From NCBI GenBank assembly GCA_038325875.1, contig JBBQJL010000007.1:50-64049 (forward strand): a stretch of DNA of 64,000 bases, written 5' to 3'. Below are positions 545 to 53,873 of the stretch, piece after piece. The position numbers were made by a program, and so were the translations under genes. This DNA is from Candidatus Limnocylindrales bacterium (GTDB lineage: Bacteria; Chloroflexota; Limnocylindria; Limnocylindrales; CSP1-4). Under the pieces are notes generated by a model, which was given only the letters and a program-made list of their open reading frames with translations, did not search any database and was not told the origin of the DNA. How positions within the stretch are numbered: the stretch's first letter is position 1; every line of letters starts with the position of its first letter.

Positions 545-1756
545 CTACCGGCTGAGCAGGCCGGCGGCGCTCCGCCACAGCCCGCCGAGGATGGCCAGCC
601 AGGGCAGCAGATAGAGCGCCGTCGACGCACCGCCGAGCCCGCCGGTCGTGTTCATCCAGTAGGCGAGGGTGCCTCCGAGCCCGGCCACGACCAGCCCCTG
701 GACGACGATCGTCCAGCGGATCCGCCGCCCGAGCCGGGCCAGCGCCCTGCGATCCCCGGCCTCGACCGCCGCTACGCCCGCTTCGAGCTCCTCGTCGGCC
801 GCGTCGTCGACCGCCCGGCGGAACCAGGCCGGCGCATGGATGACCGCCCAGTAGGCGGCCGACGCGTAGAGCAGCCCGCCGAGGATGTCGACGACGTAGT
901 GGTCGGCCAGGTAGACGATCGAGAACCAGACACATACCGAGTACGCCAGGAGGACCCAGCCGACCCGTCCGAACGCTCGACGGGCGAACAGGAACCCCAG
1001 GAACGGGAAGCCGGCATGGAGCGACGGGAACGCCGCCACCTGGTTCGGGTTGATGTCGTAGATCGTGTAGCTGTAGATGTAGCGACCCTCGAACCCGAAC
1101 ACGCTGGCCAGCTGATCGAAGCCCTGCGCCTTGAGGTAGACGATCGCCGGCCGGCCGTCAGGCCCGGGCATGAAGCCGTGCTCGGCCGCGAACCACGGCG
1201 GGGCGACTGGGAGCAGGACGTAGGTCACGAAGCCAGCCATGGCCAGCAGGATCAGCGCCGCCACGAAGTCGTAGTAGACCCGCCGGCGACGCAGCCACAG
1301 GAAGAACCCGACCGCGATCGGCAGCGGGAAGTGCAGGAAGTAGAAGATCGTCCCGACCGACGCCAGGATGTCGGTTCCGGTCGCAGGATGGAGCGCGTCC
1401 TGGAGGACCTCGGTCGGGACATGCCCGAAGAACAGCGCCCGCTCGAGGGCCAGGATGTCGGTCACGTGGACCGCCAGGCCGATGTTGTCGGCGTAGCCGC
1501 GCATCAGCTCGTAGGCGAAGAACAGGCCGATGAACGGGATCCAGTCGCGCAGGAACAGGCGGCCCCGACCGAGCAGCACGGCGGCCAGCCCGAATGCGAC
1601 GAGCAGGACGTCGGGCGTGATCGACACACCGCGGATCAGCATGAGCGCCGACAAGATCACGATGTAGGCCCCGACCGCCCACATCAGGATCCGCTCGTTG
1701 CGTTGCCCCAGGCGGGCTGTCTCGGGTATGTCCGTCGGGTCGAGCGACTCGCTCAC
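545..1756 (-). CDS. PAP2-superfamily integral membrane protein (AUR1/PAP2_C-like), multi-TM
   Basis: The C-terminal part of ORF 545..2818 is hydrophobic, with PSLHAGFPF and DHYVVDILGG motifs typical of PAP2 phosphatases/phosphotransferases. GTG at 1756 overlaps the rpe stop (GTGA); ATG at 1786 is an alternative start. Confidence 0.75.
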   Translation of the reverse strand: MSESLDPTDIPETARLGQRNERILMWAVGAYIVILSALMLIRGVSITPDVLLVAFGLAAVLLGRGRLFLRDWIPFIGLFFAYELMRGYADNIGLAVHVTDILALERALFFGHVPTEVLQDALHPATGTDILASVGTIFYFLHFPLPIAVGFFLWLRRRRVYYDFVAALILLAMAGFVTYVLLPVAPPWFAAEHGFMPGPDGRPAIVYLKAQGFDQLASVFGFEGRYIYSYTIYDINPNQVAAFPSLHAGFPFLGFLFARRAFGRVGWVLLAYSVCVWFSIVYLADHYVVDILGGLLYASAAYWAVIHAPAWFRRAVDDAADEELEAGVAAVEAGDRRALARLGRRIRWTIVVQGLVVAGLGGTLAYWMNTTGGLGGASTALYLLPWLAILGGLWRSAAGLLSR

Positions 1757-2721
1757 GGCGGCGCAGGCACGTAGGCCGTCCGCCATGCATCGGCCTCGGC
1801 GTACGCCGCGGCGCGTTCGGTCGCGTAGCGCTCGAGGGTCAGGGTCTCGACCTGGCGGGGCACCATCAGCTCGTAGTCGCGGACGCCGTCGGGGTTCATC
1901 CGACCGTCGGCCCGGAGCATGATCACCGGGATCCCACCGTCCTCGATGCTCGTGCGCAGCTTCGTCCCGACGTGGAGCGGCAGGCTGGCGATGCTCCGCC
2001 ATTCGTCGCGCGGGATGGGTGGCTTGCCGTGGTTGAGCTCGAAGGCATAGCCCTCGTCGGCCAGGGCCCGGACCAGGCGGACCTCGCGCCCCATGTCGTG
2101 GCCCTTGTGGAACAGGGCCGATCCGACGACCAGGATGTCCACCCCCAGCCCGCCGACGTACTCGGCCGTCTCGCGGTTGATCCCCCCGTCGACGTGAACC
2201 TCGCCGCCGAGCGGCAGGTAGCTCAGGATGTCCCGGGCGCCGACGATCTTGCGCGCCGCGTCGCGCATGAACGACTGACCGCCGAAGCCCGGCTCCACGG
2301 TCATCACCAGGACGATGTCGATGAGCTCGCGGTAGGGCGCCAGCGCCCGGACCGGCGTGCTCGGCTTGAGGGCCAGGCCGGCCGCCCGGCCCGCCTCGCG
2401 GATCTTGCCCAGGGTCGGCGCGATCGGCTCGTCGATCTCGACATGGAGAGTGATCGAGTCGCTGCCGGCCTCGATGAACCGGTCGACGTAGCGACTCGGT
2501 TCGCTGATCATCAGGTGGACGTCGAACGGCAGCTCGGTCCGCGGCCGGAGGTGCTTGACCGTCTTCGGCCCGAAGGTGATGTTCGGCACGAAGTGCCCGT
2601 CCATGATGTCGAGGTGGACACGATCCGCCCCGGCCTTCTCGACCCTCCGGATGGCATGGCCGAGGTTGGACAGGTCGCTGTCGAGGATGCTCGCGGCGAC
2701 GCGAGCTCGTCCGCCGGACAC
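1753..2721 (-). CDS. rpe: Ribulose-phosphate 3-epimerase with ~95-aa C-terminal extension
   Basis: ASILDSDLSNLG...HLDIMDGHFVPNITFG...DVHLM...MTVEPGFGGQSF...HVDGGIN are Rpe signature blocks. The protein is 322 aa, whereas I recall Rpe at about 220 aa. Confidence 0.92.
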   Translation of the reverse strand: MSGGRARVAASILDSDLSNLGHAIRRVEKAGADRVHLDIMDGHFVPNITFGPKTVKHLRPRTELPFDVHLMISEPSRYVDRFIEAGSDSITLHVEIDEPIAPTLGKIREAGRAAGLALKPSTPVRALAPYRELIDIVLVMTVEPGFGGQSFMRDAARKIVGARDILSYLPLGGEVHVDGGINRETAEYVGGLGVDILVVGSALFHKGHDMGREVRLVRALADEGYAFELNHGKPPIPRDEWRSIASLPLHVGTKLRTSIEDGGIPVIMLRADGRMNPDGVRDYELMVPRQVETLTLERYATERAAAYAEADAWRTAYVPAPP

Positions 2722-2726
2722 GCCGA

Positions 2727-3950
2727 TCAGCCGCCGACCGCTCGGAGCGCCGCCGCGCTGTCGCGGACGAGCAGCTCACGGCGACGAGCCACGGCGGGTG
2801 CGGCCGGCTCGCCGGCACGTTCGGCGGCCAGCTGACCGCAGGCAGCCCCGATCTCCTGGCCGCGGTTGCGCCGGATCGTGACCGCGATCCGGTCCGCGCG
2901 CAGCCTCGCCGCGAAACGCTCGATCTGGTCCATCGGGCTGGCCCGCCACGGCGTGTGCGCGACCGGGTTCATCGGGATGAGGTTGACGTGGCACAGGTCG
3001 CCGCAGAGGAGCTCGGCCATGGCGTCCGCGTCGGCCGTGGTGTCGTTGACGCCCTCGATCAGGGTCACCTCGTAGGAGATCCGCCGGCCGGTCGTCTCGG
3101 CGTGGTCCCGGGCGGCTGCCACGACCTCCGCGACCGGCCAGCGCCGGTTGAGCGGCACGAGGACGTCGCGCAGCGGATCACGCGCCGCGTGGAGGCTGAC
3201 CGCCAGGGTGAACTGCGGCCCGAGCTCGGTCAGGCGACGGATCCCCGGGACGACGCCGCTCGTGCTCACGGTGATGTGCCGGGCTCCCAGGCCGAACCGG
3301 CGAGGGTCGGACAGGGCGGTCACCGCGTCGAGCACCCGGTCGAGGTTGAGCAACGGCTCGCCCATGCCCATGAACACGACGTTGGTGAGGTGACGGCCCG
3401 CCACGGTCAGCCGGCGAGCCGCTGCGCGGACCTGGTCGACGATCTCGGCGGTGTCGAGATCGCGGGTGAAGCCGAGCTCGCCGGTCGCACAGAACGGACA
3501 GCCGACCGCACAGCCCGCCTGGCTCGAGATGCATACCGTGTTGCGCTCGCGGTTGGCGCCCCGCGCGGGGTAGTGCATCAGGACGGACTCGACGAGCGCG
3601 TCGTCGGACAGGCGATGGAGCGCCTTCTCCGTCTGGCCGCCGTCGCCCGGCTGGACCTCGGTCTCGGTCAGGGTATCGAAGCGGAACGCCGCATCGAGCT
3701 CGGCGCGCAGCCCAGCCGGCAGCGTGAGGACGTCGGCCGCGGATCGGGCGCCGCCGGCTCCTCCGGCCCAGACCGCGTCGGCGACCTGGCGTGCCCGGTA
3801 CGCCGGCTGGGATCGCGCCGCGAACCAGCCCGACAGCGCGTCAGGATGGAGGCCGGACAGTCCCGGGCGTGGGTCGCGAGCAGCTCCCTCGAGCGGTGGC
3901 TGCGGGCCGGCCGGGGCGTCTGGCGTCTGGACGTCGGTCACGCCCGGCAT
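2727..3950 (-). CDS. rlmN: 23S rRNA/tRNA (adenine-C2)-methyltransferase, radical SAM
   Basis: CISSQAGCAVGCPFCATG radical-SAM cluster motif and GMGEPLLN block. ATG at 3950 lies just downstream of the fmt stop; the longer start at 4043 is possible. Confidence 0.9.
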   Translation of the reverse strand: MPGVTDVQTPDAPAGPQPPLEGAARDPRPGLSGLHPDALSGWFAARSQPAYRARQVADAVWAGGAGGARSAADVLTLPAGLRAELDAAFRFDTLTETEVQPGDGGQTEKALHRLSDDALVESVLMHYPARGANRERNTVCISSQAGCAVGCPFCATGELGFTRDLDTAEIVDQVRAAARRLTVAGRHLTNVVFMGMGEPLLNLDRVLDAVTALSDPRRFGLGARHITVSTSGVVPGIRRLTELGPQFTLAVSLHAARDPLRDVLVPLNRRWPVAEVVAAARDHAETTGRRISYEVTLIEGVNDTTADADAMAELLCGDLCHVNLIPMNPVAHTPWRASPMDQIERFAARLRADRIAVTIRRNRGQEIGAACGQLAAERAGEPAAPAVARRRELLVRDSAAALRAVGG

Positions 3951-3981
3951 TGTCGCACGAGGCCGGGGCCGATCCGGCCGG

Positions 3982-4956
3982 TCACCCGCTGGGACCCCGG
4001 CCGATCGTCGGTCCGCGGCCCGACCCAACGAGCCGTCGGCCACGGCCGCGCAGGAACTCCTCGCCGGTCATCCGCCGCCCACTGGCGGGCTGGACCTCCT
4101 CGAGCAGCAGCCGACCGTCGACCGTGGTCAGGGCCGGCAGCCGGTCATGTTCGGCGAACCGCCCGGGTTCGTCCGATGGCTCGCCCGCCACGGGCGTCGC
4201 CCGCCAGACCGTCAGGCGACCGACATCGGTGTCGATGAAGCTTCCCGGCCAGGGCTGATAGGCCCGGACCTGCCGCGCGAGCTCGATCGCCGGTCGGTGC
4301 GGGTCGAGCAGCCCGTCGTCCTTGCGGAGCGGCCGGGTCAGCGTGGTGGCCGCATCGTCCTGCGACCGCACCGCGAGCGACCCATCGAGCCAGCTCGCCA
4401 GGATCCGCTCGAGGAGGCGCGCACCGGCCTCGGCCGCCCGGGCCTCGATCTCCGGGGCCGCCTCGGTCCCGTCGAGCGGCCAGCCGTCGCTGGCCACGAT
4501 CGGCCCGGTGTCGAGCCCGGCGTCCATCCGGATGACGGTCACCCCGGTCGTCGGGTCGCCGGCCAGGATGGCCCCGGGGATCGGCGTCGCCCCGCGGTGG
4601 CGCGGCAGGAGCGACGGATGAACGTTGAGGATGCCCCGCAGCGGCAGATCGAGGATCGCCTGGGGCACGATCCGCCCGTAGTCGGCCAGGACGCCGAGCG
4701 TTGGCGCCAGCAAGGCGATCTCGGCGATCGCCGCCTCGTCCCGGATGCGGCTTGGCTGAAGCAGGGGCAGGCCCAGCCCCGCGGCCCGAGCCGCGACCGG
4801 CGTGGGCGTCGACCGGTGCTGCCGCCCGACCGGCCGATCGGGAGCCGACACGACCCCAACGAGGGCGACCTCGGGCGCCGCGACCAGGGCGTCCAGGATC
4901 GGGACGGCGAACGCGCCGCTCCCGAAGAAGACGGTCCGCGCCGGGCCGCCGCTCAC
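3982..4956 (-). CDS. fmt: Methionyl-tRNA formyltransferase
   Basis: TVFFGSGAFAVPILDAL...LNVHPSLLPRHRGATPI...GVTVIRMDAGLDTGPI are Fmt motifs. GTG at 4956 chosen; the upstream track residues are Arg/Thr-rich. Confidence 0.9.
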   Translation of the reverse strand: MSGGPARTVFFGSGAFAVPILDALVAAPEVALVGVVSAPDRPVGRQHRSTPTPVAARAAGLGLPLLQPSRIRDEAAIAEIALLAPTLGVLADYGRIVPQAILDLPLRGILNVHPSLLPRHRGATPIPGAILAGDPTTGVTVIRMDAGLDTGPIVASDGWPLDGTEAAPEIEARAAEAGARLLERILASWLDGSLAVRSQDDAATTLTRPLRKDDGLLDPHRPAIELARQVRAYQPWPGSFIDTDVGRLTVWRATPVAGEPSDEPGRFAEHDRLPALTTVDGRLLLEEVQPASGRRMTGEEFLRGRGRRLVGSGRGPTIGRGPSG

Positions 4957-4981
4957 GGTCGGTCGCCGACCATCGCCGGCC

Positions 4982-5518
4982 TCAGGCGAGCGCGCCCTGG
5001 GCCTCGCGGATGGCCTCGGCGTCGTACTCGCCGTCCTCGTCGTCCTCGTCCGGGCCACCCACCGAGATCAGCTCGTCCATCGACTCGAGGTAGTCGATGT
5101 AGAGCTTGCCGTCGAGGTGGTCGAGCTCGTGCTGAAGGGCGCGCCCGAGCAACCCGGAGCCGGCCACCTTGTACTTCTTGCCGTGGCGATCCTGGGCGAC
5201 GACCCAGACCCGCTCATGGCGGGTGACATAGGCGACGTAGCCCGGGATCGACAGGCAGCCCTCGAGGTCGCGGTCGTCGCCGTCGGCCCGGACGATCTTC
5301 GGGTTGACCAGCTCGTACAGCCGGCTCTCGACCTCGACCACGCAGGCCTGCTTGGCCTCCCCCAGCTGCGGGGCGGCCAGACCGACACCGGGGGCATGGC
5401 GCATCGAGTCGGTCAGGTCGTCGAGCAGCTCGTGGAGGTACTTGCCGAAGCTGTCGACGGGTTCGCCCTTGAGGCGCAGGCGGGCGTCGCCCAGGAGGAC
5501 GATCGGTCTCACACTCAT
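4982..5518 (-). CDS. def: Peptide deformylase
   Basis: GVGLAAPQLG, EGCLSIPG and HELDHLDG are the three canonical Def motifs. ATG at 5518 (MSVRPIV...). Confidence 0.93.
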   Translation of the reverse strand: MSVRPIVLLGDARLRLKGEPVDSFGKYLHELLDDLTDSMRHAPGVGLAAPQLGEAKQACVVEVESRLYELVNPKIVRADGDDRDLEGCLSIPGYVAYVTRHERVWVVAQDRHGKKYKVAGSGLLGRALQHELDHLDGKLYIDYLESMDELISVGGPDEDDEDGEYDAEAIREAQGALA

Positions 5519-5553
5519 GGGCGCGAGTATACCGAGACCGAGGCCGGGCTCGA

Positions 5554-6171
5554 CTAGCGGCCCGAAACTCCGAACCGGCGGGCGCCCCGGCCGCTCGGCC
5601 GCACCGGCTCGTTGTCCATCCGCAGGCCTCGAGCCCGAAGGACCCGATCGATCTCGGCGCGGAGGCGACTGCCCTGGGGCTGCTTGTCCAACCATTCGAG
5701 GTAGCCGGGGTCGACCCGGCCGATCTCGCCGATCGACCAGCCGATGTGCCGCCCGAAATCGAGGACGGTCCCCGACGCGTTGCCGGGCGGTGGTCCGGCG
5801 CCACCTTCACCGTTCGGGCCGCGCCGCCAGGTCGGTCGGGACGGGTCCGTCGGTCGACTCGAGGCCGACGCCGGCGTGTGGCTGACCGATCCAGGCGTGA
5901 AGCCCATGGGACGGGATCCGGCTGCGGTCCGGGTGGTCGAGTCGAGGATGACCCCGGCCAGGTGGCTTCGATCGTAGGCGGCGCGCCGCTCGGGATCGCC
6001 CAGGGTCTCCCAGGCCGCGTTCAGCTGGGCCATCCGCGTCCCGGCCGAGGGATCGGTCGAGTGGTCCGGGTGGAGGCGCCGGGCGAGGGCGCGATAGGCG
6101 GCCTGGAGGACGTCCTGGCTGGCATCCTGATGGACCTGCAGGATCGCGTACGGGTCGAACTGGTCGGGCAT
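5554..6171 (-). CDS. J-domain protein with C-terminal DUF3820-like module
   Basis: The N-terminus DPYAILQVHQDASQDVLQAAYRALARRLHPD...AYD is a DnaJ J-domain with HPD. The C-terminus FGRHIGWSIGEIGRVDPGYLEWL resembles the DUF3820/ExoX-C-terminal-type motif, from memory. Confidence 0.8.
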   Translation of the reverse strand: MPDQFDPYAILQVHQDASQDVLQAAYRALARRLHPDHSTDPSAGTRMAQLNAAWETLGDPERRAAYDRSHLAGVILDSTTRTAAGSRPMGFTPGSVSHTPASASSRPTDPSRPTWRRGPNGEGGAGPPPGNASGTVLDFGRHIGWSIGEIGRVDPGYLEWLDKQPQGSRLRAEIDRVLRARGLRMDNEPVRPSGRGARRFGVSGR

Positions 6172-6230
6172 CCCCCGCCGTCTCCGATGTGCTCACCACG
6201 GTCCGGCGAGCCACGCGCGCCGGCGACCCG

Positions 6231-6259
6231 AACGTACGTGCTCACCTAGGGCATGTCAA
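6231..6259 (-). promoter_or_regulatory. Candidate sigma-70-type promoter for the J-domain gene
   Basis: The minus strand reads TTGACA-17 nt-TACGTT about 60 nt upstream of the ATG at 6171. Just upstream are two direct GGTGTGGTCC repeats. Confidence 0.35.
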
Positions 6260-6298
6260 CGGACCACACCACCCGGGACCACACCAGCAGGGATGGAT

Positions 6299-8899
6299 TC
6301 AGAGCAGCGATTCCGGATCGACATCGACCGACCACGGGGCATCCAGCCCGCCGTCCAGGAGGTCGGCCGGCGCTCGACCGCGAAGGACCACGTTCCAACG
6401 CCAACGCCCGGCCCGGCGCCGGATGAAGGCCGGGGCCGGGCCGATCACCGTGACGGCAGACCCGCGCTCGATCGCTCGCGCCCGCAGCAGCTCGGCCGTG
6501 GCGCCGGCCTCACGCTCGGCCGCTTCGGGGTCGGGCAGCCCCACGGTCAGCTTGATCAGGCGCCCGAATGGCGGTGAACCGAAGCGGCGGCGGGCGTCCA
6601 GCTCCGCATCGTAGAACGCGGCCGGATCCGCTCCGACCACGGCCTGGATCGCGGGATGGTCCGGCTGGTAGCTCTGGATGATCGCCCGGCCCGGGCGCTC
6701 GCCGCGACCCGCCCGGCCGAACGCCTGGGCGAGCAGCTGGTAGGTCCGTTCGGCGGCGCGCTCGTCGGGCAGGTTGAGGGCCACGTCGGCGCTGACGACG
6801 CCGACCAGGGTCACCTCCGGGATGTCGAGACCCTTGGCCACAAGGCTGGTCCCGACCAGGACGTCGAGCCGCCCGTCGGTGAAGGCGTCGACGACCCGCT
6901 CGGCGGCGCCCTTTCGCTCGACGACGTCACGATCGAGGCGCCCCACCCGGAGACCGGGGAACCGCTCGCGGACCTCGCGCTCGACCCGCTCGGTGCCGCC
7001 GCCGAGGTAGCGGATCCGGGGGGACGCACAGGCGGGACAGCGGCTTGCCATCGGCGCGGCCGTGCCGCAATGGTGACAGCGCAGGGACCCACCACTGGCG
7101 TGATAGACCAGCGGTCGTTCGCACTCGGGGCAGGCCTGGACGTGGCCGCAGTCTCGACACATCACGACCGAGGCGGTGCCCCGCCGGTTGATGACCAGGA
7201 TCGCCCGCTCGCCATCCGAGGGGTCGAGCGCGACGAGGGCGGAAGCCAGCTCCGCCGAGATCAGGCCACGGTTCCCGGCGGCCAGCTCGGCGCGCAGGTC
7301 GACCACCTCGACCCTGGGCGGGAGGCCGCTCGGACGCTCGGGCAGGACGACTCGCCGATAGGTCCCGTCACGAGCATGACCCATCGTGTCGACCGCCGGC
7401 GTGGCACTCCCAAGGACGACCGCGGCACCGGCCAGCCGACCCAGTTCGAGAGCCACGTCGCGGGCCTGGATCCGGGGTGTCCGGTCGCTCTTGTAGGTGG
7501 CTTCGTGTTCCTCGTCGACCACCACCAGCCCGACGTCGGCCAGCGGCGCCACGACCGACAGCCGCGTCCCGACGACGATGTCGACCTCGCCGGCCCGGAT
7601 CCGTCGCCATTCGTCGGTCCGCTCCCCTGCCCCGACGGCCGAGTGGACCAGCGCGACCCGGGCGTCGAGGTCCGCCCGGAGGCGATCCACGAGCGGCATC
7701 GCCAGGGCGATCTCCGGGACGAGGACGAGGGCGGGCCGTCCGGCGGCGAGACAGTCCCGGATCGCTTCCGCATAGACTGCCGTCTTGCCGCCCCCGGTCA
7801 CCCCGTCCAACAGAAGCGGCGTCGGGTCCCGCTCGGCGATCGCGGTCTGGATCAGGGCGACTGCGTTCGCCTGCGGCTCGGTCAGGGTCACCCCACTCGG
7901 GCGGCCGCCACGCGGTCCGGCCGGTCGCGCTCCGAGTGGACGGCGCGGTCGTTCGCGGATCTCGGTGACCAGCAGGCCGCGGCGGACCAGACCGGCCAGG
8001 GCCGACGTCCCGTGGCGGCCCGCCAGGATGGCCGCCGGCAGGCCGTCCGGCCCCGCGTCCAGCTCGTCGAGCAGGGCGACCTGACGGGGACCGAGGGGGC
8101 GACCGGTCAGACGTCCACCGGCCCGGAGCGTCGCCGCCGCGGCGTGCCCAGCATCGGTCGACCGCGCCCAGCGCTCGTAGCGCGGACCGCCGGTCGCCGC
8201 CAGGAGCGTCCAGTCGAGGTCCAGCCGACCTCCCGCGGCCAGCCCACGCAACCGGCGCAGGAGCCCGGCTCGGCCCTCGGGTGCTGCCAGGTCACGGACC
8301 GGGCGCGGCCCGTCGGCCAGCTGGTCGAGGATGGCGCGATCGGCCGGCCCGAGCTCCTCACCGTCCGGGCCGCCGGCGATGGTGACCGGCAGCACGTCCG
8401 GTCGCGATTCGGCGACGAGCTCGAGCCGCTCGAGGATCCCTGGCGGGAGCATCGACCGGATGACGGTCCCGGGCGGGACCAGGTAGGTCGCGGCGATCCG
8501 CTCGGCGAGGGCGAGCGTCAGCGGCGGCAGGAGCGGGCCGTCGGCCCGGATCCGGTCGACGATCGGTCGGATCGACGACGCCGCCGGTCCGCTGCCGGGA
8601 TCGGTGGCGGCCCCGAGGACGACCCCGAGCGCCTGGCGCTTGCCGAAGTCCACCAGCACCGCCTCGCCGGGCTCGAGATCGGCCAGCCGGGGTGGGACGG
8701 CGTAGGTGTACCGCCGCGCTCCCGCGCCCGGAGCGTCGACGGCGACCTCGACCAGGCGCGGACCGACCTCGGAGGCCGGGGCTCCGCCGGCCACGGTCAC
8801 GCCGCTGACCCCGGCCTCGGACTCTCCCGCCAGACCGAGGTCGAGCTCGACCGAACTGTCGCTCCCGTGTCGTCCGCCGGTCGTGGTCATGGCCGCCAT
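6299..8899 (-). CDS. priA: Primosomal protein N' (replication restart helicase PriA)
   Basis: LLLDGVTGGGKTAVY Walker A, VVVDEEHE box, and the Cys-rich zinc region CRDCGHVQACPECERPLVYH...CHHCG...CPACAS. ATG at 8899 (MAAMTTT). Confidence 0.92.
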   Translation of the reverse strand: MAAMTTTGGRHGSDSSVELDLGLAGESEAGVSGVTVAGGAPASEVGPRLVEVAVDAPGAGARRYTYAVPPRLADLEPGEAVLVDFGKRQALGVVLGAATDPGSGPAASSIRPIVDRIRADGPLLPPLTLALAERIAATYLVPPGTVIRSMLPPGILERLELVAESRPDVLPVTIAGGPDGEELGPADRAILDQLADGPRPVRDLAAPEGRAGLLRRLRGLAAGGRLDLDWTLLAATGGPRYERWARSTDAGHAAAATLRAGGRLTGRPLGPRQVALLDELDAGPDGLPAAILAGRHGTSALAGLVRRGLLVTEIRERPRRPLGARPAGPRGGRPSGVTLTEPQANAVALIQTAIAERDPTPLLLDGVTGGGKTAVYAEAIRDCLAAGRPALVLVPEIALAMPLVDRLRADLDARVALVHSAVGAGERTDEWRRIRAGEVDIVVGTRLSVVAPLADVGLVVVDEEHEATYKSDRTPRIQARDVALELGRLAGAAVVLGSATPAVDTMGHARDGTYRRVVLPERPSGLPPRVEVVDLRAELAAGNRGLISAELASALVALDPSDGERAILVINRRGTASVVMCRDCGHVQACPECERPLVYHASGGSLRCHHCGTAAPMASRCPACASPRIRYLGGGTERVEREVRERFPGLRVGRLDRDVVERKGAAERVVDAFTDGRLDVLVGTSLVAKGLDIPEVTLVGVVSADVALNLPDERAAERTYQLLAQAFGRAGRGERPGRAIIQSYQPDHPAIQAVVGADPAAFYDAELDARRRFGSPPFGRLIKLTVGLPDPEAAEREAGATAELLRARAIERGSAVTVIGPAPAFIRRRAGRWRWNVVLRGRAPADLLDGGLDAPWSVDVDPESLL

Positions 8900-10585: not shown

Positions 10586-11174
10586 CCGACAGCCCGTCCC
10601 CGAGTGCAGGTGCCGCGCCCGCCAGCCCCGGCACGAACGCCAGCAGGAGGAGCAGCAGGATCGCCGCGCTGATCGCGGCGTCACCGAGGTTGAACGTCCA
10701 GAAGCGCACGCTGCCGAGGCCCGCATCGACCCAGTCGACGACGTAGCCCAGCCGGATCCGGTCGATCAGGTTGCCGCTGGCGCCGCCGAGGAGCAGGCCG
10801 AGGGCGATCGACAGCAACGGGCTCCGCCCCGAACGGGCGTGGTAGCCGACGATCAGGGCCAGGACGCCGATGCTGGCGATGGCCAGGACCGGCGCCGCCG
10901 TCCCGAACAGGCCGAACAGGGCCCCGTCGTTCTTCGAGTGGATCAGCCGGACGAGGTCGCCCAGCAGGGCGACCGCCGTCCCGGGCACGATGTTGGCCAC
11001 CACCCACACCTTCGACAGTTGGTCGACGACGAGGACCGCGGCGGCCACCCCGAAGAACAGCAACCAGGCCGGGCGACCGGAAGCGGTCGGAGCCGCACCG
11101 CTGACAGGCGGCGCGACGGGCGCGTCGGTCTGGTCCAGGTCGCTGCCTCCGTCGAGTCGAGTGGGTCCGGTCAC
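10578..11174 (-). CDS. lspA: Lipoprotein signal peptidase (signal peptidase II)
   Basis: Four-TM profile with NDGALFG, GGASGNLIDR and FNLGDAAI motifs. GTG at 11174 follows the ileS stop. Confidence 0.88.
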   Translation of the reverse strand: MTGPTRLDGGSDLDQTDAPVAPPVSGAAPTASGRPAWLLFFGVAAAVLVVDQLSKVWVVANIVPGTAVALLGDLVRLIHSKNDGALFGLFGTAAPVLAIASIGVLALIVGYHARSGRSPLLSIALGLLLGGASGNLIDRIRLGYVVDWVDAGLGSVRFWTFNLGDAAISAAILLLLLLAFVPGLAGAAPALGDGLSDG

Positions 11175-46720: not shown

Positions 46721-48001
46721 TCAGGACGCGGAGCGGCGCGCCGGTCGGCCGGTCGCGGCGACGCGCCCCCGCCGCCGGTCGTCCCAGTTGTGCCAGACGA
46801 CGAGGAGCGGCGACGCATTGAAGATCGACGAGTACGTCCCGGACACGATCCCGATCAGCAGGGCCAGCACGAAGTAGGACGTCGCGGCGCCGCCGAACAG
46901 GAGCAATGCGGTCAGGGTGATGACGACCGTCAGGCTGGTGTTGATCGAGCGTCCGAAGGTCTGCAGGACCGAGTGGTTGACGATCCGGTCGAACGGCTCG
47001 CCGATGTGCCGTGCCCGGTTCTCCCGAACGCGGTCGAACACCACGATCGTGTCGTGAACGCTGAAGCCGATCACGGTCAGGACCGCGGTCACGAACAGGG
47101 CGTCGATCTGGACCCGGAAGAACGTGCCCAGGATGGCGAACGTGCCGACCAGCACGAGCACGTCGTGGACGAGCGCGACCAGGGCGGTCGCCCCGAACCG
47201 GAAGTCGCGGAACCGGATCGTCATCCAGATCAGGATGCCGATCGAGCCGAGGACGATGAGCAGGGCGGCCTGCTGGGTCAGCTCCGCGCTGATGACCGGA
47301 CCGACGGTCGACAGGGTCCGCTGCGCGGCGATCGGTCCAAGCTCCTTCTGCAGACCGGTGGCGATCTCGCCGAACTTGCCGGTCGTCGGCAGCTGCGGCC
47401 CGCTCGTACCGCCAGTGCCGATCGCCGGCGAGGCCGACGGTCCGGCCGAGGCGGACGGCGCAGGGCTGCCGGCAGCCGACGGGGCCGGGCTAGCCGATGC
47501 GCTCGGCGCCGCGGACGCGCTGGCCCCGGGCGAGGAGCTCGGGCCCGGTGAGGCGCTGAGACCGCCGGGGATCTTCGCGCCGGGCGAGGCACTCGCGCCG
47601 GGCGAGGCACTCGCGCCAGCCGACGCACTGGCACCGGCCGAGGCCGAGGCACTCGCGCCGGGCGATGCCGCAGCGCTGGGAGCGATCGACGGGGACGGGC
47701 TCGCGGCGGGCGGCGGCAAGGCCACCTGGCGGGAGCGGATCTCGTAGAAGCCGCCGCTCGTGGCGATGACCGTCGCGTCGGTCACCCCCTGGTTCGCCAG
47801 CGCGGTCTTGATCCGGTCGCCATCGACCGTCGCATCCTCGAACCGGATCTCCCAGTTCGTCCCGCCGGTGTAGTCGATCGAGAACTGGAGGCCCGCCGCA
47901 CCGTTGGTGATCGGTCCGAGGAGGATGAAGATGAGGCCTGGGATCGTGGCGATCGCCGAGATCAGGAAGAACCAGCGGCGCTTGCCGATGACGTCAAACA
48001 C
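46721..48001 (-). CDS. secF: Protein translocase subunit SecF (with ~110-aa Ala/Ser/Pro-rich insertion)
   Basis: The SecF N-terminus is FDVIGKRRWFFLISAI...IDYTGGT, and the C-terminal six-TM bundle has TIVVFDRVREN. The insertion spans aa 94-203. Confidence 0.9.
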   Translation of the reverse strand: MFDVIGKRRWFFLISAIATIPGLIFILLGPITNGAAGLQFSIDYTGGTNWEIRFEDATVDGDRIKTALANQGVTDATVIATSGGFYEIRSRQVALPPPAASPSPSIAPSAAASPGASASASAGASASAGASASPGASASPGAKIPGGLSASPGPSSSPGASASAAPSASASPAPSAAGSPAPSASAGPSASPAIGTGGTSGPQLPTTGKFGEIATGLQKELGPIAAQRTLSTVGPVISAELTQQAALLIVLGSIGILIWMTIRFRDFRFGATALVALVHDVLVLVGTFAILGTFFRVQIDALFVTAVLTVIGFSVHDTIVVFDRVRENRARHIGEPFDRIVNHSVLQTFGRSINTSLTVVITLTALLLFGGAATSYFVLALLIGIVSGTYSSIFNASPLLVVWHNWDDRRRGRVAATGRPARRSAS

Positions 48002-49385
48002 GGGCGCTCACCGGTCGCGGTCCACGGCCCGGCGTCTTGGCCAGGAAGTCGTCGTCACTGACGCCCCACAGGCTGGCCTTGCGCGCGAACTCCCGCCGGA
48101 CGACGACCCGCAGGATCGTCCGGGTCACGGTCACCGCGGTGAACATCGAGGTGAGCACACCGATGATCAGGACCAGGGCGAAGCCCTTGATCGTGGGCGA
48201 GCCGAAGGCGTACAGGATGCTGGCCGTGATCAGGCTCGACACGTTCGAGTCGAGGATCGAGTTCCAGGCCCGGGAGAAGCCGGCCTCGACCGCCGAGTTC
48301 AGGGTCTTGCCCAGCCGGAGCTCTTCCTTGGTCCGCTCGAAGATGAGGATGTTGGCGTCGACCGCCATGCCGACCGACAGGACGAAGCCGGCGATGCCGG
48401 CCAGGGTCACCGTGACCGGGATCAGCCGGAAGATGGCCAGCACCACCAGCGCGTAGTAGATCAGGGCCAGGTCGGCCACCAGGCCGGGCAGCCGGTAGTA
48501 GACGAGCATGAACAGGAACACCAGGCCGATCCCGATCCCACCGGCGATCAGGCTCGCGCGCAGGAACTCTGCGCCGAGGGTCGCGCTGATCTGGGAGTCC
48601 TGGACCGCGGCGATGGGGAACGGCAGCGAACCGTACTTCAGGACGGTGACCAGGCTGTTCATCTGGACGACGGCATCCTTGCCCGTCCCCATCGTGATCT
48701 GACCGGATCCCTGGGTGATCGGTTCGCGGATGCTCGGCGCCGAGATGACCTTGTTGTCGAGCACGATCGCGAAGAACTCGCCGACGTGCGCCTTGGTGTA
48801 CTCGGCGAACAGCTTGGAGGCGTAATCGTCCAAGCTGAACTGGACGACCGGCCCGCCGGACGTCTGGTCCGTCCCGGGGGCCGCCTGGGTCAAGTGCTCG
48901 CCCGTGAACAGCGGCACGAGGTTGGGATCCGCCGGCAACTCCTGCCCGTCGACGACGCCGTTCGGTCCGCCCGTCGACGAGGTGCCGTACCGGTCGCCCG
49001 GCAGCGGCACGAACGTCAGCTGCCCGGTCTGGCCGACCAGCCGTTCGATCGCCTCCCGGTCGGTGGCGCCGGGCAGCTCGACCACGACCCGGTCGGTGCC
49101 CTGGACGACGACGATCGGCTCGGACACCCCGGTCGAGTTCACCCGCCGCTCGATGATGTCGCGGATCGTGGCCATGGCGCCGGCATCCGGAGTCTTGTCA
49201 CCGACAGGTTTGGCCTGGTATTCGACCCGCAGACCGCCCTGCAGGTCGAGCCCGAGCTTGGTCTCGACGAGACGGGAACCGCCGGACAGATCGCCGAGAG
49301 GCGGCAGCTTGAGGCCGGGCCAGAAGTTGATGATGAGCGCGAGCAGGCCGATGACGATGATCAGGAGGGGGACGAAGCGACGCAT
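47994..49385 (-). CDS. secD: Protein translocase subunit SecD
   Basis: LGLDLQGG, the periplasmic P1 head, and the C-terminal TM bundle (AGIAGFVLSVGMAVDANILIFER). Confidence 0.93.
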   Translation of the reverse strand: MRRFVPLLIIVIGLLALIINFWPGLKLPPLGDLSGGSRLVETKLGLDLQGGLRVEYQAKPVGDKTPDAGAMATIRDIIERRVNSTGVSEPIVVVQGTDRVVVELPGATDREAIERLVGQTGQLTFVPLPGDRYGTSSTGGPNGVVDGQELPADPNLVPLFTGEHLTQAAPGTDQTSGGPVVQFSLDDYASKLFAEYTKAHVGEFFAIVLDNKVISAPSIREPITQGSGQITMGTGKDAVVQMNSLVTVLKYGSLPFPIAAVQDSQISATLGAEFLRASLIAGGIGIGLVFLFMLVYYRLPGLVADLALIYYALVVLAIFRLIPVTVTLAGIAGFVLSVGMAVDANILIFERTKEELRLGKTLNSAVEAGFSRAWNSILDSNVSSLITASILYAFGSPTIKGFALVLIIGVLTSMFTAVTVTRTILRVVVRREFARKASLWGVSDDDFLAKTPGRGPRPVSARV

Positions 49386-49444: not shown

Positions 49445-51301
49445 TCAGGCCTCCATCGTCGCCTTGATCCGGGCCGCCAGGGCCGGTCCGATGCCGGGTA
49501 CGGCGGCGATCTGTTCGACCGGCGCCTCGCGCACGCGCTTGGCCGAGCCGAACACCCGGAGGAGCGCCCGCCGGCGCTTCGGGCCGACCCCCGGCAGGTC
49601 GTCGAAGGCCGACCGGACGGACGCCTTGGCCCGCAGGTCGCGGTGGTAGGTGATGGCGAAGCGGTGCGCCTCGTCGCGCAGGCGCTGGACGAGGTAGAGC
49701 GCCTGCGATGTCGTCGGCAGCAGGATCGGCTCCGTCCGGCCGGGCAGGAACAGCTCCTCGCGCTCCTTGGCCAGTCCGGCCAGCGGCAGGTCGTCGAGGC
49801 CCATCTCGGCCAGGACCTCGGCCGCGGCGCTGACCTGGCCCTTGCCCCCGTCGACGATGACCAGGTCGGGCAGCCGCCAGCGGAGCTCTTCCTCGGCGCC
49901 CTCGTCACCGGCCTTGGCCCGTCGGAACCGACGGCGGAGGACCTCCTGGTGGCTGGCGAAGTCGTTGGAGCCCTGGACGCCCTTGATCCGGAAGCGTCGG
50001 TAGTCGCCGGTCCGCGGCTTGCCGTCCTCGAACACGACCATGCTGGCCACCGACTGGTCGCCCTGGAAGTTGCTGATGTCGTAGCCCTCGATGCGGAGCG
50101 GCGGATCGGCCAGTCCGAGGGCGTCGGCCAGCTCGCGCAGCGCCCCGAGGGTCTTGCCTTGGTCGGCCAGCCAGCGGGCCTGCTCGCGGGCCAGCGCCTC
50201 GGTCGCGTTGCGCACGGCCAGGGTCATCAGGGCGCGCTTCTCCCCGCGCTGCGGGACGCGCAGGTGGACGGGACCGCTGCGTCTCTCGGCGAGGAACGCC
50301 TCGAGCACCTCCGTGTCGTCGCGGCCGGGCAGGCTCGGGACCAGGACGAGGACCGGGATCGACGTCGCCCGGCTGTAGTACTGCTCGAGGAAGCCGCCGA
50401 GGACCTCGTCATCGGGCGCCTCGTGGGCGGCATCGAGCATGAACACGTCCCGCCCGATCATCTTGCCGTCGCGGATGACGAACAGCTGGACGGCCGCCTG
50501 GTTGTCCTGGCGGGCCAGCCCGATGAGGTCCAGCTCGGTCCGGGCGAAGGCGGCCATCTTCTGGCTCTCCATCGTCCGCTCGATCGCCCGGATCTTGTCG
50601 CGCAGGACGCCCGCCCGCTCGTACTCGGTCCGCTCGGCGGCGACGGCCATCTCCCCCTCGAGCGCCTTGACCAGCGTCTCCTGGCGACCTTCGAGGAACA
50701 GCTCGACCTGCTCGATGTCGGCGCGGTAGGCGTCCTTCGAGATCGCCTCGATGCACGGACCCTGGCAGCGCTTGATGTGATAGAGCAGGCAGGGTCGCTG
50801 GAGTGCCCGCTTGCCGTCCTTGATGTCGATCGTGCAGGTCCGGAACGGGAACAGCCGGCGGATCAGGTTCATCGACTCATCGACGCTGGTCGCCGAGGCA
50901 TACGGGCCGAAGTAGCGGCTGCCGTCGTTGGGCAGCTTGCGGGTCCGCTCGATCCGCGGGAAGTCGTCGCCCAGGGTGATCTTGATGAACGGGTAGCTCT
51001 TGTCGTCCTTGAGCCGGATGTTGAAGCGCGGCGCGTAGCGCTTGATCAGGTTGGCCTCGAGCAGGAGCGCCTCGGAGACCGAGTCGGTCATCGTGTACTC
51101 GAGGTCGACGACCTTGTCGATGACGCTCCGGATCCGATGGACCTCGCCGCCGACGGCCTGCTTCTGCCAGTAGCTCCGGACCCGGCTGCGCAGGCTCTGG
51201 GCCTTGCCGACGTAGACGACCACGCCCCGGGCGTCCTTCATCAGGTACACGCCGGGTCGGTCGGGCAGCTTCTTGAGGGTCGCGGCGAGCTCGGGGGTCA
51301 C
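49445..51301 (-). CDS. uvrC: Excinuclease ABC subunit C
   Basis: GIY-YIG N-terminus (GVYLMKDARGVVVYVGKA), UVR domain, endonuclease V-like domain and a C-terminal (HhH)2. Confidence 0.95.
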   Translation of the reverse strand: MTPELAATLKKLPDRPGVYLMKDARGVVVYVGKAQSLRSRVRSYWQKQAVGGEVHRIRSVIDKVVDLEYTMTDSVSEALLLEANLIKRYAPRFNIRLKDDKSYPFIKITLGDDFPRIERTRKLPNDGSRYFGPYASATSVDESMNLIRRLFPFRTCTIDIKDGKRALQRPCLLYHIKRCQGPCIEAISKDAYRADIEQVELFLEGRQETLVKALEGEMAVAAERTEYERAGVLRDKIRAIERTMESQKMAAFARTELDLIGLARQDNQAAVQLFVIRDGKMIGRDVFMLDAAHEAPDDEVLGGFLEQYYSRATSIPVLVLVPSLPGRDDTEVLEAFLAERRSGPVHLRVPQRGEKRALMTLAVRNATEALAREQARWLADQGKTLGALRELADALGLADPPLRIEGYDISNFQGDQSVASMVVFEDGKPRTGDYRRFRIKGVQGSNDFASHQEVLRRRFRRAKAGDEGAEEELRWRLPDLVIVDGGKGQVSAAAEVLAEMGLDDLPLAGLAKEREELFLPGRTEPILLPTTSQALYLVQRLRDEAHRFAITYHRDLRAKASVRSAFDDLPGVGPKRRRALLRVFGSAKRVREAPVEQIAAVPGIGPALAARIKATMEA

Positions 51302-51320: not shown

Positions 51321-52115
51321 TCAGGGCGAAGGCGATGCCGAGGGGGTCACACGTTCGAGCTGGAACGGCAGCGAGCCGTACTTGAGGATGTCCACGAGCT
51401 CGTTCATCCGGGCGACCGCGTCAGGGTCGCCGCCCATCGCGATCTGGCCGGACCCTCCGTTGATCACCTCCCGGATGCTCGGCGTCGCGATGACCTTGTC
51501 GTCGACGACGATGGCAAAGTAGTCGCCGACGTGATCGCGGGTGTACTCGGCGAACAGCCTGGCCGCGGAGTCGTCGAGGGTGAAGGCCACCACCGGCCCG
51601 GAGGTCGTCTGATCGCTCCCCGGGTTGGCGCTGATCAGGTGATCGCCGGTGAACAGGGGCTTGAGCGCGGGGTCCTTCGGCAGCGGTTGGCCATCGACCA
51701 CGCCCGTCGGGCCGCCGTGCGTCGCGTCGCCGTACGTCGCCGCCGGGAGCGGTACGAACGCCAGGATGCCGCGGCGGAGGATCAGCGGTTCGACCATCGT
51801 CGGATCGATGCCGGCCGGGAGATCGACCACGATCCGGTCCACGCCATCGACACCGACGATCGGATCGACGATCCCGGTGGCATTCAGGCGCTGCTGGAGG
51901 ATGCCCCGGACCATGTCCATGCCGGCGACATCGGGGGCGGTCGATCCCGATGGCAGGACCTTGAACGTCGTCCGAACCAGCGAAACGACCGTCGGCGCCG
52001 GGTTCCCGACGGGCGACAGGATCGGCGAGACGGCCGAGCAGGCTGCGGCGAGCGTGACGAGGGCGGCCAACGCCCCGACCAGCCGGGCTCGTCCCGCGAT
52101 ACGCGCGCTCGACAT
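51321..52115 (-). CDS. Lipoprotein consisting of a stand-alone SecD-P1 (periplasmic head)-like domain
   Basis: Lipobox LAAAC. Residues about 120-255 align by eye at roughly 60% identity with SecD from this window (e.g. GPVVAFTLDDSAARLFAEYTRDHVGDYFAIVVDDKVIATPSIRE vs GPVVQFSLDDYASKLFAEYTKAHVGEFFAIVLDNKVISAPSIRE). No TM bundle. Confidence 0.8.
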   Translation of the reverse strand: MSSARIAGRARLVGALAALVTLAAACSAVSPILSPVGNPAPTVVSLVRTTFKVLPSGSTAPDVAGMDMVRGILQQRLNATGIVDPIVGVDGVDRIVVDLPAGIDPTMVEPLILRRGILAFVPLPAATYGDATHGGPTGVVDGQPLPKDPALKPLFTGDHLISANPGSDQTTSGPVVAFTLDDSAARLFAEYTRDHVGDYFAIVVDDKVIATPSIREVINGGSGQIAMGGDPDAVARMNELVDILKYGSLPFQLERVTPSASPSP

Positions 52116-52193
52116 GGCAGAAGCCTAGCAGCGACGAGGCGCGGCCACGGCCGATGATCGGCGGCGAAGAGCCGCCGGCCACCATCGCGCTCG

Positions 52194-53873
52194 ATGGATC
52201 TCCACCCCGACGTCCAGGCTCGACTGGACCGCCTCACGCCCGATCAGCGCGCAGCGGCGACCGCGCCACCCGGTCCCGTCCTGTGCCTGGCGCCCGCCGG
52301 AAGCGGCAAGACGACGACGCTGGTGGCCCGGATCGCCTGGCTGGTCGCGACCGGGACCCCGGCCGAACGGATCGCCGCGATCGCCTTCAACAAGCGGGCC
52401 GCGGACGAGCTGGACGAGCGGGTCGGTGCGGCGCTGCTGACCCTGGGCGTTCCGGCCGGGGCGGTCCGTGTCCGCACGTTCCACGCGTTCGGGCGGGAGA
52501 TCCTGCGAGCCGCCGGGCACTCGGTCGAGCCTCTGGTCGAGCGGGACGCCGTCATCCGCTCCGTCCTGCCCGACGCGGACCCGGCCGAGCGGCGCCGGCT
52601 CGACACGGCCTTCTCCACGCTCAAGCTTGAGCATCGGGCCGACCCCGCTGCCATCGACGCCGACCCGGAGGCCGGCCCGCGCGCGCGAGCGTTCGTGGCC
52701 TATGAAGCGGCCGTCCAGGCCACCGGCGGACTCGACTTCGACGACCTGGTGGCGCGCGCCCTGACCCTCCTCGAGACCGACCCCTCCCTGCTTGCCGGCT
52801 GGCGGAGCGCCTGCACGGAACTCCTCGTCGACGAGGTCCAGGACGTCGACCGGTCGCAACTCGAGCTGGCCCTGCTCATCGCCGCACCGACGAACCGGAT
52901 CTTCCTGGTCGGCGACGACGACCAGTCCATCTACGGCTGGCGACTGGCCGACGTACGGCGAGTGCTCGCCCTGGCGACCCAGCTGCCGGGACTGAGCCGC
53001 CACGACCTGATCACCAACTTCCGCTGCCCGGCTCCGGTCGTCGAGCGCGCCGTCCGCCTGATCGAGCACAACACGGAACGGTTCGCCAAGACCATCGTCG
53101 CCCGAACGGGAGCGACGGGTCGGCTCATCCTGGCGCCAGACGCCTCCGACGATGACGAGCGCATTCGGCACGTGATCGCCAGCTGGGCCGCCGTCGGCGC
53201 GGACGCGGATGACTCGACCCGGGCGATCTTGGCCAGGACGAACCGGGAGCTCCTCCCGGCCGCTGCCGTCGCGCTCGAGCTCGAGATCCCGTTCCGGGCC
53301 GAGCGACTGACCCTGCCACTGGAGGACCCGCGCCTCGACGGGATCCTGGCGCATGTGTCAGCCGGCGATCCAGCCACGCCCCTGCTGGTCCGGCTCGGGT
53401 CGCTGCGGGACCGCCCCGCGCCAGCCGAGCCGAGACCAGCCCAGCCGACGCCGGCCGAGCCGGCCGCCACGGACGATCCCCTCCCCTTCGACGAGCTGGT
53501 CGGCACGGTCCTCGCCTGGGCCGCCCCATACCGCGACCCACGCACGTTCGTGGACGCCGTTCGTGACCGGCAGGCCGCACTTCGGCGCCTCCGCTCCGAG
53601 GACGCGACCCTCACCCTGGCCACCGCCCACTCGACCAAGGGCCTCGAGTTCGACCACGTCGCGGTCGTCGACATGGACGACGGTCGATTCCCCAGCCAGC
53701 GCACGCTCGACGAAGCAGACGACCCGCTCCGCGCGCTCGAGGAGGAGCGCCGCCTCGCCTACGTCGCCTGGACCCGGGCCCGCCGCTCGCTCACGCTCGT
53801 CTACGACCCGGCCGCACCGTCGCGGTTCCTGCTCGAGGCATTCGATCCCGAGGAAGTGTCCTGGTCGACCTGA
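52194..53873 (+). CDS. UvrD/REP-family (superfamily 1) DNA helicase, short form
   Basis: LAPAGSGKTTT (Walker A), AFNKRAADEL, LLVDEVQDVD, VGDDDQSIYGWR, and a C-terminal TAHSTKGLEFDHV...AYVAWTRAR. Confidence 0.88.
   Translation: MDLHPDVQARLDRLTPDQRAAATAPPGPVLCLAPAGSGKTTTLVARIAWLVATGTPAERIAAIAFNKRAADELDERVGAALLTLGVPAGAVRVRTFHAFGREILRAAGHSVEPLVERDAVIRSVLPDADPAERRRLDTAFSTLKLEHRADPAAIDADPEAGPRARAFVAYEAAVQATGGLDFDDLVARALTLLETDPSLLAGWRSACTELLVDEVQDVDRSQLELALLIAAPTNRIFLVGDDDQSIYGWRLADVRRVLALATQLPGLSRHDLITNFRCPAPVVERAVRLIEHNTERFAKTIVARTGATGRLILAPDASDDDERIRHVIASWAAVGADADDSTRAILARTNRELLPAAAVALELEIPFRAERLTLPLEDPRLDGILAHVSAGDPATPLLVRLGSLRDRPAPAEPRPAQPTPAEPAATDDPLPFDELVGTVLAWAAPYRDPRTFVDAVRDRQAALRRLRSEDATLTLATAHSTKGLEFDHVAVVDMDDGRFPSQRTLDEADDPLRALEEERRLAYVAWTRARRSLTLVYDPAAPSRFLLEAFDPEEVSWST

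Follow-up and report, generated by a model that had tools for sequence, protein, structure and literature searches.

What use could a cell make of the part of SecD that handles exported polypeptides, once it is separated from the membrane motor that moves it? This question is raised by a gene in a 64,000-nucleotide stretch of DNA from a Candidatus Limnocylindrales bacterium (assembly GCA_038325875.1, contig JBBQJL010000007.1, positions 50 to 64,049 of the forward strand), which is referred to below as the window. An original prediction, made from the letters alone, reported here a 264-aa open reading frame (ORF) with a lipobox at 51321–52115, located about 2 kb from secD and coding for a stand-alone paralog of the SecD P1 head; both the ORF and its distance from secD are as described. 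In SecDF the substrate is contacted by the amphiphilic cavity of the P1 head, which crosslinks to precursor, the periplasmic region binds unfolded protein, and proton flow through the transmembrane (TM) bundle powers the movement (PMC5974789; PMC7793623). Since the bundle supplies the energy and the P1 head contacts the precursors, a P1 domain without the bundle may be expected to act as an energy-independent binder or sensor. With a little better than an even chance, in our estimate, the paralog is a copy of P1 located outside the cytoplasm and tethered to the membrane, most likely by a lipid anchor, and binds or senses unfolded exported polypeptides without consuming energy.

The similarity to SecD was previously estimated by eye as about 135 aa at roughly 60% identity. 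The match is real but longer and slightly less identical: in one ungapped BLASTP alignment residues 47–259 of the paralog pair with residues 52–264 of the local SecD, 118 of 213 positions being identical (55%) with 71% positives and an E-value of 4e-82. The most conserved motifs of the SecD P1 region, FAIVLDG..ISAP.I and LRYGSLP, are shared by the paralog. Two Pfam models recognize the protein above their 27-bit cut-offs, SecD_1st (PF21760; residues 67–121, 34.9 bits) and SecDF_P1_head (PF22599; residues 152–250, 79.5 bits), so that the head is indeed present, but the copy comprises the base as well and is not a head alone. No match in the paralog was obtained with SecD_SecF_C (PF02355), the model of the six-helix resistance-nodulation-division (RND)-type TM bundle containing the proton pathway, while the neighbouring SecD is matched by all three. 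With the NCBIfam model of secD (TIGR01129) the paralog scored 104 bits, below the cut-off of 244. The presence of P1 models only, together with this score, indicates that the paralog is a complete P1 domain, base plus head, with no other part of SecD. The claim that the entire TM bundle is lacking thus holds. The ORF ends at the point where TM2 of SecD would start, uvrC begins 19 nt further on, and there is no remnant of the bundle between them. In the whole assembly (2.99 Mb, 89 contigs, 86.6% complete) only two copies of the P1 domain were found, in the paralog and in SecD.

The same conclusion follows from the predicted fold. An AlphaFold2 model was built on an alignment of 34 sequences, in which F188, I202, D205, L244, G247, L249 and P250 form invariant columns. 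Its mean predicted local distance difference test (pLDDT) value is 85.8, exceeding 90 across residues 46–255; an N-terminal helix at residues 7–28 is followed by a disordered linker. Searched against the Protein Data Bank (PDB) with Foldseek, the model found first 3AQO, the isolated P1 domain of Thermus thermophilus (probability 1.0, TM-score 0.72–0.74), and then the full-length SecDF structures 5YHF, 5XAP, 5XAN and 3AQP. A phmmer search of PDB sequences agrees, giving 3aqo with an E-value of 2.9e-18. The paralog shares the whole base-plus-head fold, as well as the location on the outer face of the membrane, with P1 of SecDF from T. thermophilus (3AQP, 5YHF and the isolated 3AQO) and Deinococcus radiodurans (5XAN, 5XAP). 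Since 3AQO is the structure of P1 alone, the domain is stable by itself.

Orthologs of the paralog turned out to exist in two forms. Those retrieved by a word-indexed search are stand-alone proteins of 320–339 aa, 43–62% identical to the window protein and encoded on long contigs. The clade of proteins from this locus has 12 members, always placed between a gene of UvrD-like helicase and uvrC, so that the synteny beside uvrC, which had been suggested for a survey, is kept throughout: helicase in the divergent orientation, then the P1 gene and uvrC. Nine of the 12 members represent a long form, which possesses a cytoplasmic N-terminus of about 55 aa (MSTGEDFDRIVRDWLEVGPTQLSE...RTRQRR), one hydrophobic TM helix, a Pro/Ser linker and the P1 domain, in this order. 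In the loci L003 (1.97-Mb contig) and L004 (713-kb contig) the gene order of the window (divergent helicase, then uvrC, secD, secF, recJ and a gene of PD40 protein) is reproduced, and the space between helicase and uvrC harbours a gene of extracytoplasmic function (ECF) sigma factor (Sigma70_r2 plus r4_2, 183–190 aa), the stop codon of which lies in a 4-bp overlap with the beginning of the P1 gene. In G108, the GTDB representative of the same genus (locus L042), an ECF sigma gene is also situated directly upstream of the P1 gene. Such adjacency was therefore registered in all three long-form loci examined, with the 4-bp overlap in two of them. The sigma gene (about 10621–11165) and secD (3492–4778) of L042 (G108:C5) are each split by a frameshift; as this 10-contig assembly comes from a long-read project, indel errors rather than pseudogenes are the probable reason.

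Pairs like RsiW/SigW and RseA/SigE combine an ECF sigma factor with a single-pass anti-sigma factor controlled by regulated proteolysis. The sister orthologs share with such pairs the short cytoplasmic N-terminus, one TM helix, an extracytoplasmic domain and the gene position after ECF sigma, and a more distant P1 relative (G008, see below) likewise has an adjoining gene of site-2 protease. The long form therefore has an anti-sigma-like architecture and can be considered as a putative anti-sigma factor, the sigma binding of these relatives being only predicted. Their cytoplasmic segments gave no Pfam match and contain no zinc-binding motif.

In the window no sigma gene adjoins the paralog, and the protein begins at the hydrophobic segment, without a cytoplasmic domain. 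In nucleotide alignments with the relatives, the helicase gene is alignable up to its start codon and the P1 gene from approximately codon 53 on, while the distance between these edges is 236 bp in the window versus 987 bp in L003, i.e. about 750 bp are absent. The hydrophobic N-terminus and linker of the window protein align weakly with the TM-plus-linker part of the long proteins. In no frame does 51900–52260 resemble either the sigma protein or the N-terminal 48 residues of the long proteins. A hidden upstream extension or frameshift masking an anti-sigma domain was considered and rejected, as the helicase aligns to its start codon only 78 bp away and no frame shows similarity. Sixteen other ECF-like sigma matches are present in the genome, the best being 36–38% identical to the sigma factors of the relatives, versus 66–79% among true orthologs; neither a relocated sigma ortholog nor the N-terminal segment was found elsewhere in the assembly, which is 86.6% complete.

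Upstream of the sigma genes (L003 7333–7452, L004 7286–7431 and the corresponding region of L042) there is a common motif, GATCGAAC...(about 25 nt)...CCCCATC.GGGTGTAGCGTC, which is absent from the window and the other short-form loci. It may be a promoter or operator of the sigma operon. For an ECF-type promoter the spacing from GAAC to CGTC is too long. In the window itself (52116–52130) the ATG codon of the paralog is preceded, at a distance of 6 nt, by a TAGGCT hexamer (TANNNT), and there is no Shine-Dalgarno sequence; a leaderless mRNA would fit such a layout.

The short state is not confined to the window. Exhaustive phmmer search gave two further short forms, P0081 (263 aa, 57% identity) and P0083 (253 aa, 50% identity). 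Their contigs, each shorter than 2 kb, resemble the window: the divergent helicase, the short P1 gene and uvrC follow one another, and a sigma gene is lacking. Three lineages, therefore, have intact ORFs of 253–264 aa at the same locus. The N-terminal sequence of the window protein, MSSARIAGRARLVGALAALVTLAAAC-SAVS, has the layout of a signal peptide: a positively charged n-region with R5, R9 and R11, a 14-residue hydrophobic core and then L-A-A-A-C ending with Cys26, with LVGALAALVTLAAA standing between the arginines and Cys26. A regular expression modelled on PROSITE PS51257 matches LAAAC, and Cys26 falls within the first 35 or so residues expected by the lipobox rule ([LVI..][AST..][GAS]C). 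Both other short forms have a lipobox with Cys29, LAAAC in P0081 (IVTLAAACS versus LVTLAAACS in the window) and IVASC in P0083 (TIVASCGS). The lipobox cysteine is the sole cysteine of the protein in three of three short forms, Cys26 of the paralog included, while no cysteine at all occurs in eight of eight long forms. Taken together, two further sigma-less orthologs with a lipobox and the sole-cysteine pattern argue that the short form is a shared and adapted state, not an accident of the window assembly.

The genome encodes signal peptidase II (LspA; PF01252, 110 bits, C7:10684–11097, the same contig as the paralog) and two homologues of Lgt (PF01790, 198 and 77 bits), all three above the Pfam cut-offs. 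Since the lipobox rule is obeyed and both LspA and Lgt are encoded, lipidation of the paralog at Cys26 is plausible. The only LspA gene of this genome lies within the same window, at 10635–11048. At the other end of the protein, the window sequence (51321–51350) and all 11 full-length orthologs have a short Pro/Ser tail with Ser-Pro or Ala-Pro as the last two residues; the tails are PSASPSP, VPSASP, VPSTSP, PSGSPSP, PSGSPAP, PPSTSP and PVVASP.

Divergence of the paralog was compared with that of its neighbours. Between the window and L003 amino acid identity is 94% for UvrC (non-synonymous divergence, dN, 0.03; NG86 ratio of dN to synonymous divergence, dN/dS, 0.08), 89% for the whole SecD (dN 0.07, dN/dS 0.16), 87% for its P1 region (dN 0.09, dN/dS 0.18) and 64% for the stand-alone P1 (dN 0.30, dN/dS 0.38). 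For the P1 paralogs the ratios are 0.38–0.56 in pairs with the window, 0.30 between P0081 and P0083, and 0.38–0.39 in the sigma-coupled pair L003–L004, all of them being rough because dS is near saturation. Codon composition of the paralog (GC content of 0.89 at third versus 0.50 at second positions) is a coding pattern. Judged by these values, the paralog is under moderate purifying selection, with no extra relaxation in the window lineage.

In trees of the P1 domain (IQ-TREE, LG+C20) proteins of this locus form one clade, with support of 96/98 for 9 rows and 97/98 for 12 rows. It is embedded in the SecDs of its own genus-level lineage (99/100), apart from SecDs of other genera of the family, which indicates that the paralog is a derivative of the SecD P1 region of its own genus-level group, soil Chloroflexota of Limnocylindria type. 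Recent gene conversion with the local secD left no sign, the paralog being 55% identical to its own SecD and 59% to SecD of L003; older conversion with nearby secD could contribute to the nesting of each stand-alone clade with SecD of its own genus. A recent pseudogenised partial duplication, named by the original prediction as the finding that would overturn it, is ruled out by 45% divergence from SecD, orthologs in at least 12 lineages, intact ORFs, dN/dS below 1 and the lack of a TM remnant.

Stand-alone P1 proteins are not restricted to this locus. According to a rough classifier applied to the best 150 representatives of 50%-identity clusters, only 14 are SecD-like, while about 75 carry P1 behind an N-terminal anchor, with no TM bundle following it; a lipobox is present in 15 of these, an N-terminal TM helix in 24, and a TM helix preceded by a cytoplasmic extension in 36. 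Where organisms are named, they are uncultured Chloroflexia, Limnocylindrales or Chloroflexota, known as metagenome-assembled genomes from soil. Trees show that other stand-alone P1 genes of the family were derived separately, from SecD of their own lineages; the separate origins include the lipoproteins L043 and L044, a clade of DsbA fusions beside SecD of G012 and a clade with PepSY tails. In G008 (L046, G008:C10:62000–72000; locus 2415–5968) genes of a site-2 protease (Peptidase_M50) and an ECF sigma factor are followed by a gene, overlapping sigma by 4 bp, for a 537-aa protein with a cytoplasmic N-terminus, TM helix, SecD-P1 and a Thioredoxin_4/DsbA domain with CxxC, and G012 (L047) is similar. 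This gene set looks like a regulated-proteolysis cassette, with a predicted sensor that joins P1 to an oxidoreductase. Further P1 proteins adjoining sigma genes are present in G120 and G080. L043 (G098, 1185–4326) and L044 (G036, 4887–7982), two genomes of one genus, code for P1-only lipoproteins with lipoboxes LVAGC and LLAGC, divergently adjoining genes of a DUF4118-HisKA-HATPase kinase and an OmpR-type response regulator. In the metagenomic sequences P0086 and P0087 an N-terminal double-CxxC zinc ribbon (RFCPSCGA...FCSNCGADL) precedes one TM helix and SecD-P1. Recurrence of P1 in anti-sigma-like proteins, beside a site-2 protease and in fusion with DsbA fits recognition of unfolded exported chains, and such repeated coupling to signalling genes speaks for a protein that binds or senses exported polypeptides rather than for a competitor of SecDF.

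Based on these data one can assume the following course of events. The P1 region of the lineage's own SecD would have been copied and kept between the divergent helicase gene and uvrC–secD–secF. In the long form P1 would serve as the outside domain of a single-pass membrane protein paired with ECF sigma. In the short form the sigma gene and the cytoplasmic segment would have been lost, and the anchor helix turned into a lipoprotein signal peptide. P1 without the TM bundle would bind but not pull, and the window protein, tethered to the outer membrane face by its lipid anchor, would serve as a holdase or catcher, or else as a sensor working in trans, unwired from its former sigma. In comparison with SecDF, it lacks the TM bundle, and with it movement driven by protons, as well as a SecF partner in cis; the lipobox signal peptide takes the place of TM1 of SecD, and evolution is 3–4 times faster. 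The window copy differs from ECF sigma/anti-sigma pairs in lacking both the sigma gene and the cytoplasmic segment. The proposed mode of action is like that of the lipoprotein PrsA of Firmicutes and PpiD of Escherichia coli, which are anchored at the outer face near the translocon and bind emerging chains without energy. Their fold is unrelated to that of the paralog, which has no parvulin or SurA-like domain and for which chaperone activity is what we infer. PpiD is known to contact the P1 head of SecD (PMC7793623).

Several observations weigh against this scheme. The signal peptide of the paralog also contains a site resembling that of signal peptidase I (AAA|C). Upstream of the paralog there is no recognizable Shine-Dalgarno sequence, and a consensus scan revealed no sigma-70-type promoter; no terminator was found either. 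The dN/dS ratio is higher than that of the SecD P1 region (0.18) at nearly saturated dS, so that constraint is moderate and poorly measured. Cavity residues of P1 in SecDF are not well conserved (PMC5974789), and polypeptide binding by the paralog is transferred from SecDF. Completeness of 86.6% leaves room for a relocated sigma gene. Finally, in the approximately unbiased (AU) test neither a single clade of short forms (p 0.22) nor a single clade of long forms (p 0.13) is rejected. The branching order inside the 12-member clade is therefore not settled by the trees, and together with the abundance of lipoprotein-type stand-alone P1s elsewhere this gives some room to the reverse history, in which the lipoprotein form is ancestral and the sigma gene and cytoplasmic segment were added later, the function remaining as proposed above. 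We regard this order of events as possible though rather doubtful: long-form G108 branches first within the clade in the larger trees (96/98 and 94/90), the window N-terminus retains its weak similarity to the long-form TM-plus-linker, and in a tree of the flanks (672 nt of helicase and uvrC segments) the long-form genome L004 pairs with the short-form genome L056 (97/96), so that genomes with the two locus states are intermixed even at close relationship. Thus, we consider it more likely that the sigma gene and N-terminus were lost than that they were gained later. Loss might also have left nothing but a decaying relic, a P1 gene functionless after the deletion and simply not disrupted so far. 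The partner sigma gene and the promoter motif are indeed gone, with no ortholog of sigma or of the N-terminal segment elsewhere in the assembly; the paralog evolves 3–4 times faster than P1 of SecD (dN 0.30 versus 0.09), with higher dN/dS, and has no recognizable promoter or Shine-Dalgarno sequence. Nevertheless, decay appears improbable: intact ORFs are kept at the locus in three lineages diverged to 50–57% identity, ratios of 0.30–0.56 are below 1 and on the window branch no worse than in the L003–L004 pair, the fold is predicted with pLDDT above 90, and the sole-cysteine lipobox of each short form, absent from the long forms, looks like a gain rather than decay.

If the protein is functional, its role may also be a different one. 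Both roles suggested by the original prediction, a chaperone and a modulator or competitor of SecDF, are plausible. In the latter case a free P1 might dock on P4 of SecF, on SecD or on SecYEG, thereby competing with P1 of the motor or regulating it. It has kept the base of P1, the partner of SecF P4 within SecDF (PMC5974789), descends from SecD of the same lineage and is tightly and conservatively linked to secD–secF, 2 kb off on the same strand. The linkage, however, is accounted for by an origin through local duplication, and independently derived stand-alone P1 genes are found not beside secDF but next to sigma, site-2 protease or two-component genes, or fused to DsbA. Fast divergence of the paralog against conserved SecD and SecF is also unexpected for a tightly docking partner, and among the possibilities weighed here we give the least credit to this one. 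Nearly as unlikely seems an accessory role in trans, with the lipoprotein informing some other signalling protein of the membrane, for instance a histidine kinase or a different anti-sigma factor, about the condition of exported proteins. Some lipoproteins do assist two-component systems as accessory sensors, in two genomes the independent P1 lipoproteins L043 and L044 have a DUF4118-HisKA kinase and an OmpR-type regulator as neighbours, the P1 family is repeatedly associated with signalling genes, and many ECF sigma/membrane-partner pairs exist in the genome. But kinase adjacency is limited to one genus, and the window offers neither an adjacent signalling gene nor a candidate partner. The reading that we prefer for the window protein is still that of a membrane-tethered protein which would bind or sense unfolded exported polypeptides independently of energy.

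A broader generalization can be offered only tentatively: in soil Chloroflexota P1 may have been repeatedly copied from SecD as a modular sensor of unfolded exported proteins, wired to ECF sigma factors (with site-2 protease), to two-component systems or into DsbA fusions, which would constitute a new route of secretion-stress response. The original prediction was not aware of a characterized free-standing SecD head domain. Neither stand-alone P1 proteins nor an anti-sigma sensor of SecD type turned up in a full-text literature search, so that this stands, but the domain type is common in Chloroflexota metagenomes and not unique to the window. The domain and the signalling architectures are of known kinds; their combination and the lipoprotein form are uncharacterised variants.

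Positions of the paralog, its parts and the neighbouring genes in the window are collected in Table 1. In the translation of the neighbouring secF a low-complexity insertion of about 110 aa, rich in Ala, Ser, Pro and Gly, is seen at 47393–47722, in the periplasmic P4 region.

Table 1. Window coordinates of the stand-alone P1 gene, its segments and its surroundings.
Feature	Position	Strand	Comment	Evidence
Stand-alone SecD-P1 paralog	51321..52115	-	264 aa; coordinates include the stop codon	ORF list, BLASTP, Pfam, AlphaFold2
Signal peptide with lipobox LAAAC, residues 1-26	52038..52115	-	Cys26 at 52038-52040	Sequence, ortholog comparison
Pro/Ser/Val-rich linker, residues 27-45	51981..52037	-	Low confidence	pLDDT <50 for residues 24-35
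Complete P1 domain, base + head, residues 46-255	51351..51980	-		pLDDT >90 throughout; Foldseek; phmmer
P1 head subdomain, residues 152-250	51366..51662	-	Includes FAIVVDD..IATPSI and LKYGSLPF	Pfam PF22599, E 2.3e-22
Divergent intergenic region, 78 bp	52116..52193	.	In sister genomes holds the candidate promoter motif, ECF sigma gene and P1 cytoplasmic N-terminus	blastn vs L003, L004, L042
UvrD-like helicase	52194..53873	+	Divergent; conserved neighbour on the other side	Pfam, synteny
uvrC	49445..51301	-	Conserved neighbour, 19 nt downstream of the P1 gene	ORF list, synteny
secD	47994..49385	-	Intact, 463 aa; donor lineage of the paralog	Pfam, NCBIfam, trees
secF	46721..48001	-		ORF list, Pfam, NCBIfam

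Of the core components of bacterial protein export SecDF is understood least, and opinions differ as to what its P1 head recognizes. P1 domains that occur naturally in soluble or singly anchored form show that the function of P1 is separable from the proton motor, and their partners (ECF sigma, site-2 protease, DsbA, histidine kinase) suggest that unfolded exported chains are what they recognize. As simple reagents, stand-alone P1s are suitable for binding and structural work. Their genes are often mislabelled in annotations as 'preprotein translocase subunit SecD'. The window presents the less informative, sigma-less state of the locus. If the sigma-coupled relatives sense secretion stress, they would provide a new feedback route, comparable to the known monitors SecM and VemP. 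If, furthermore, P1 does function as a modular sensor, the sigma-coupled and sigma-less states of one locus would offer a ready comparison for the sensed signal and for the targets of sigma, possibly including uvrC–secDF itself.

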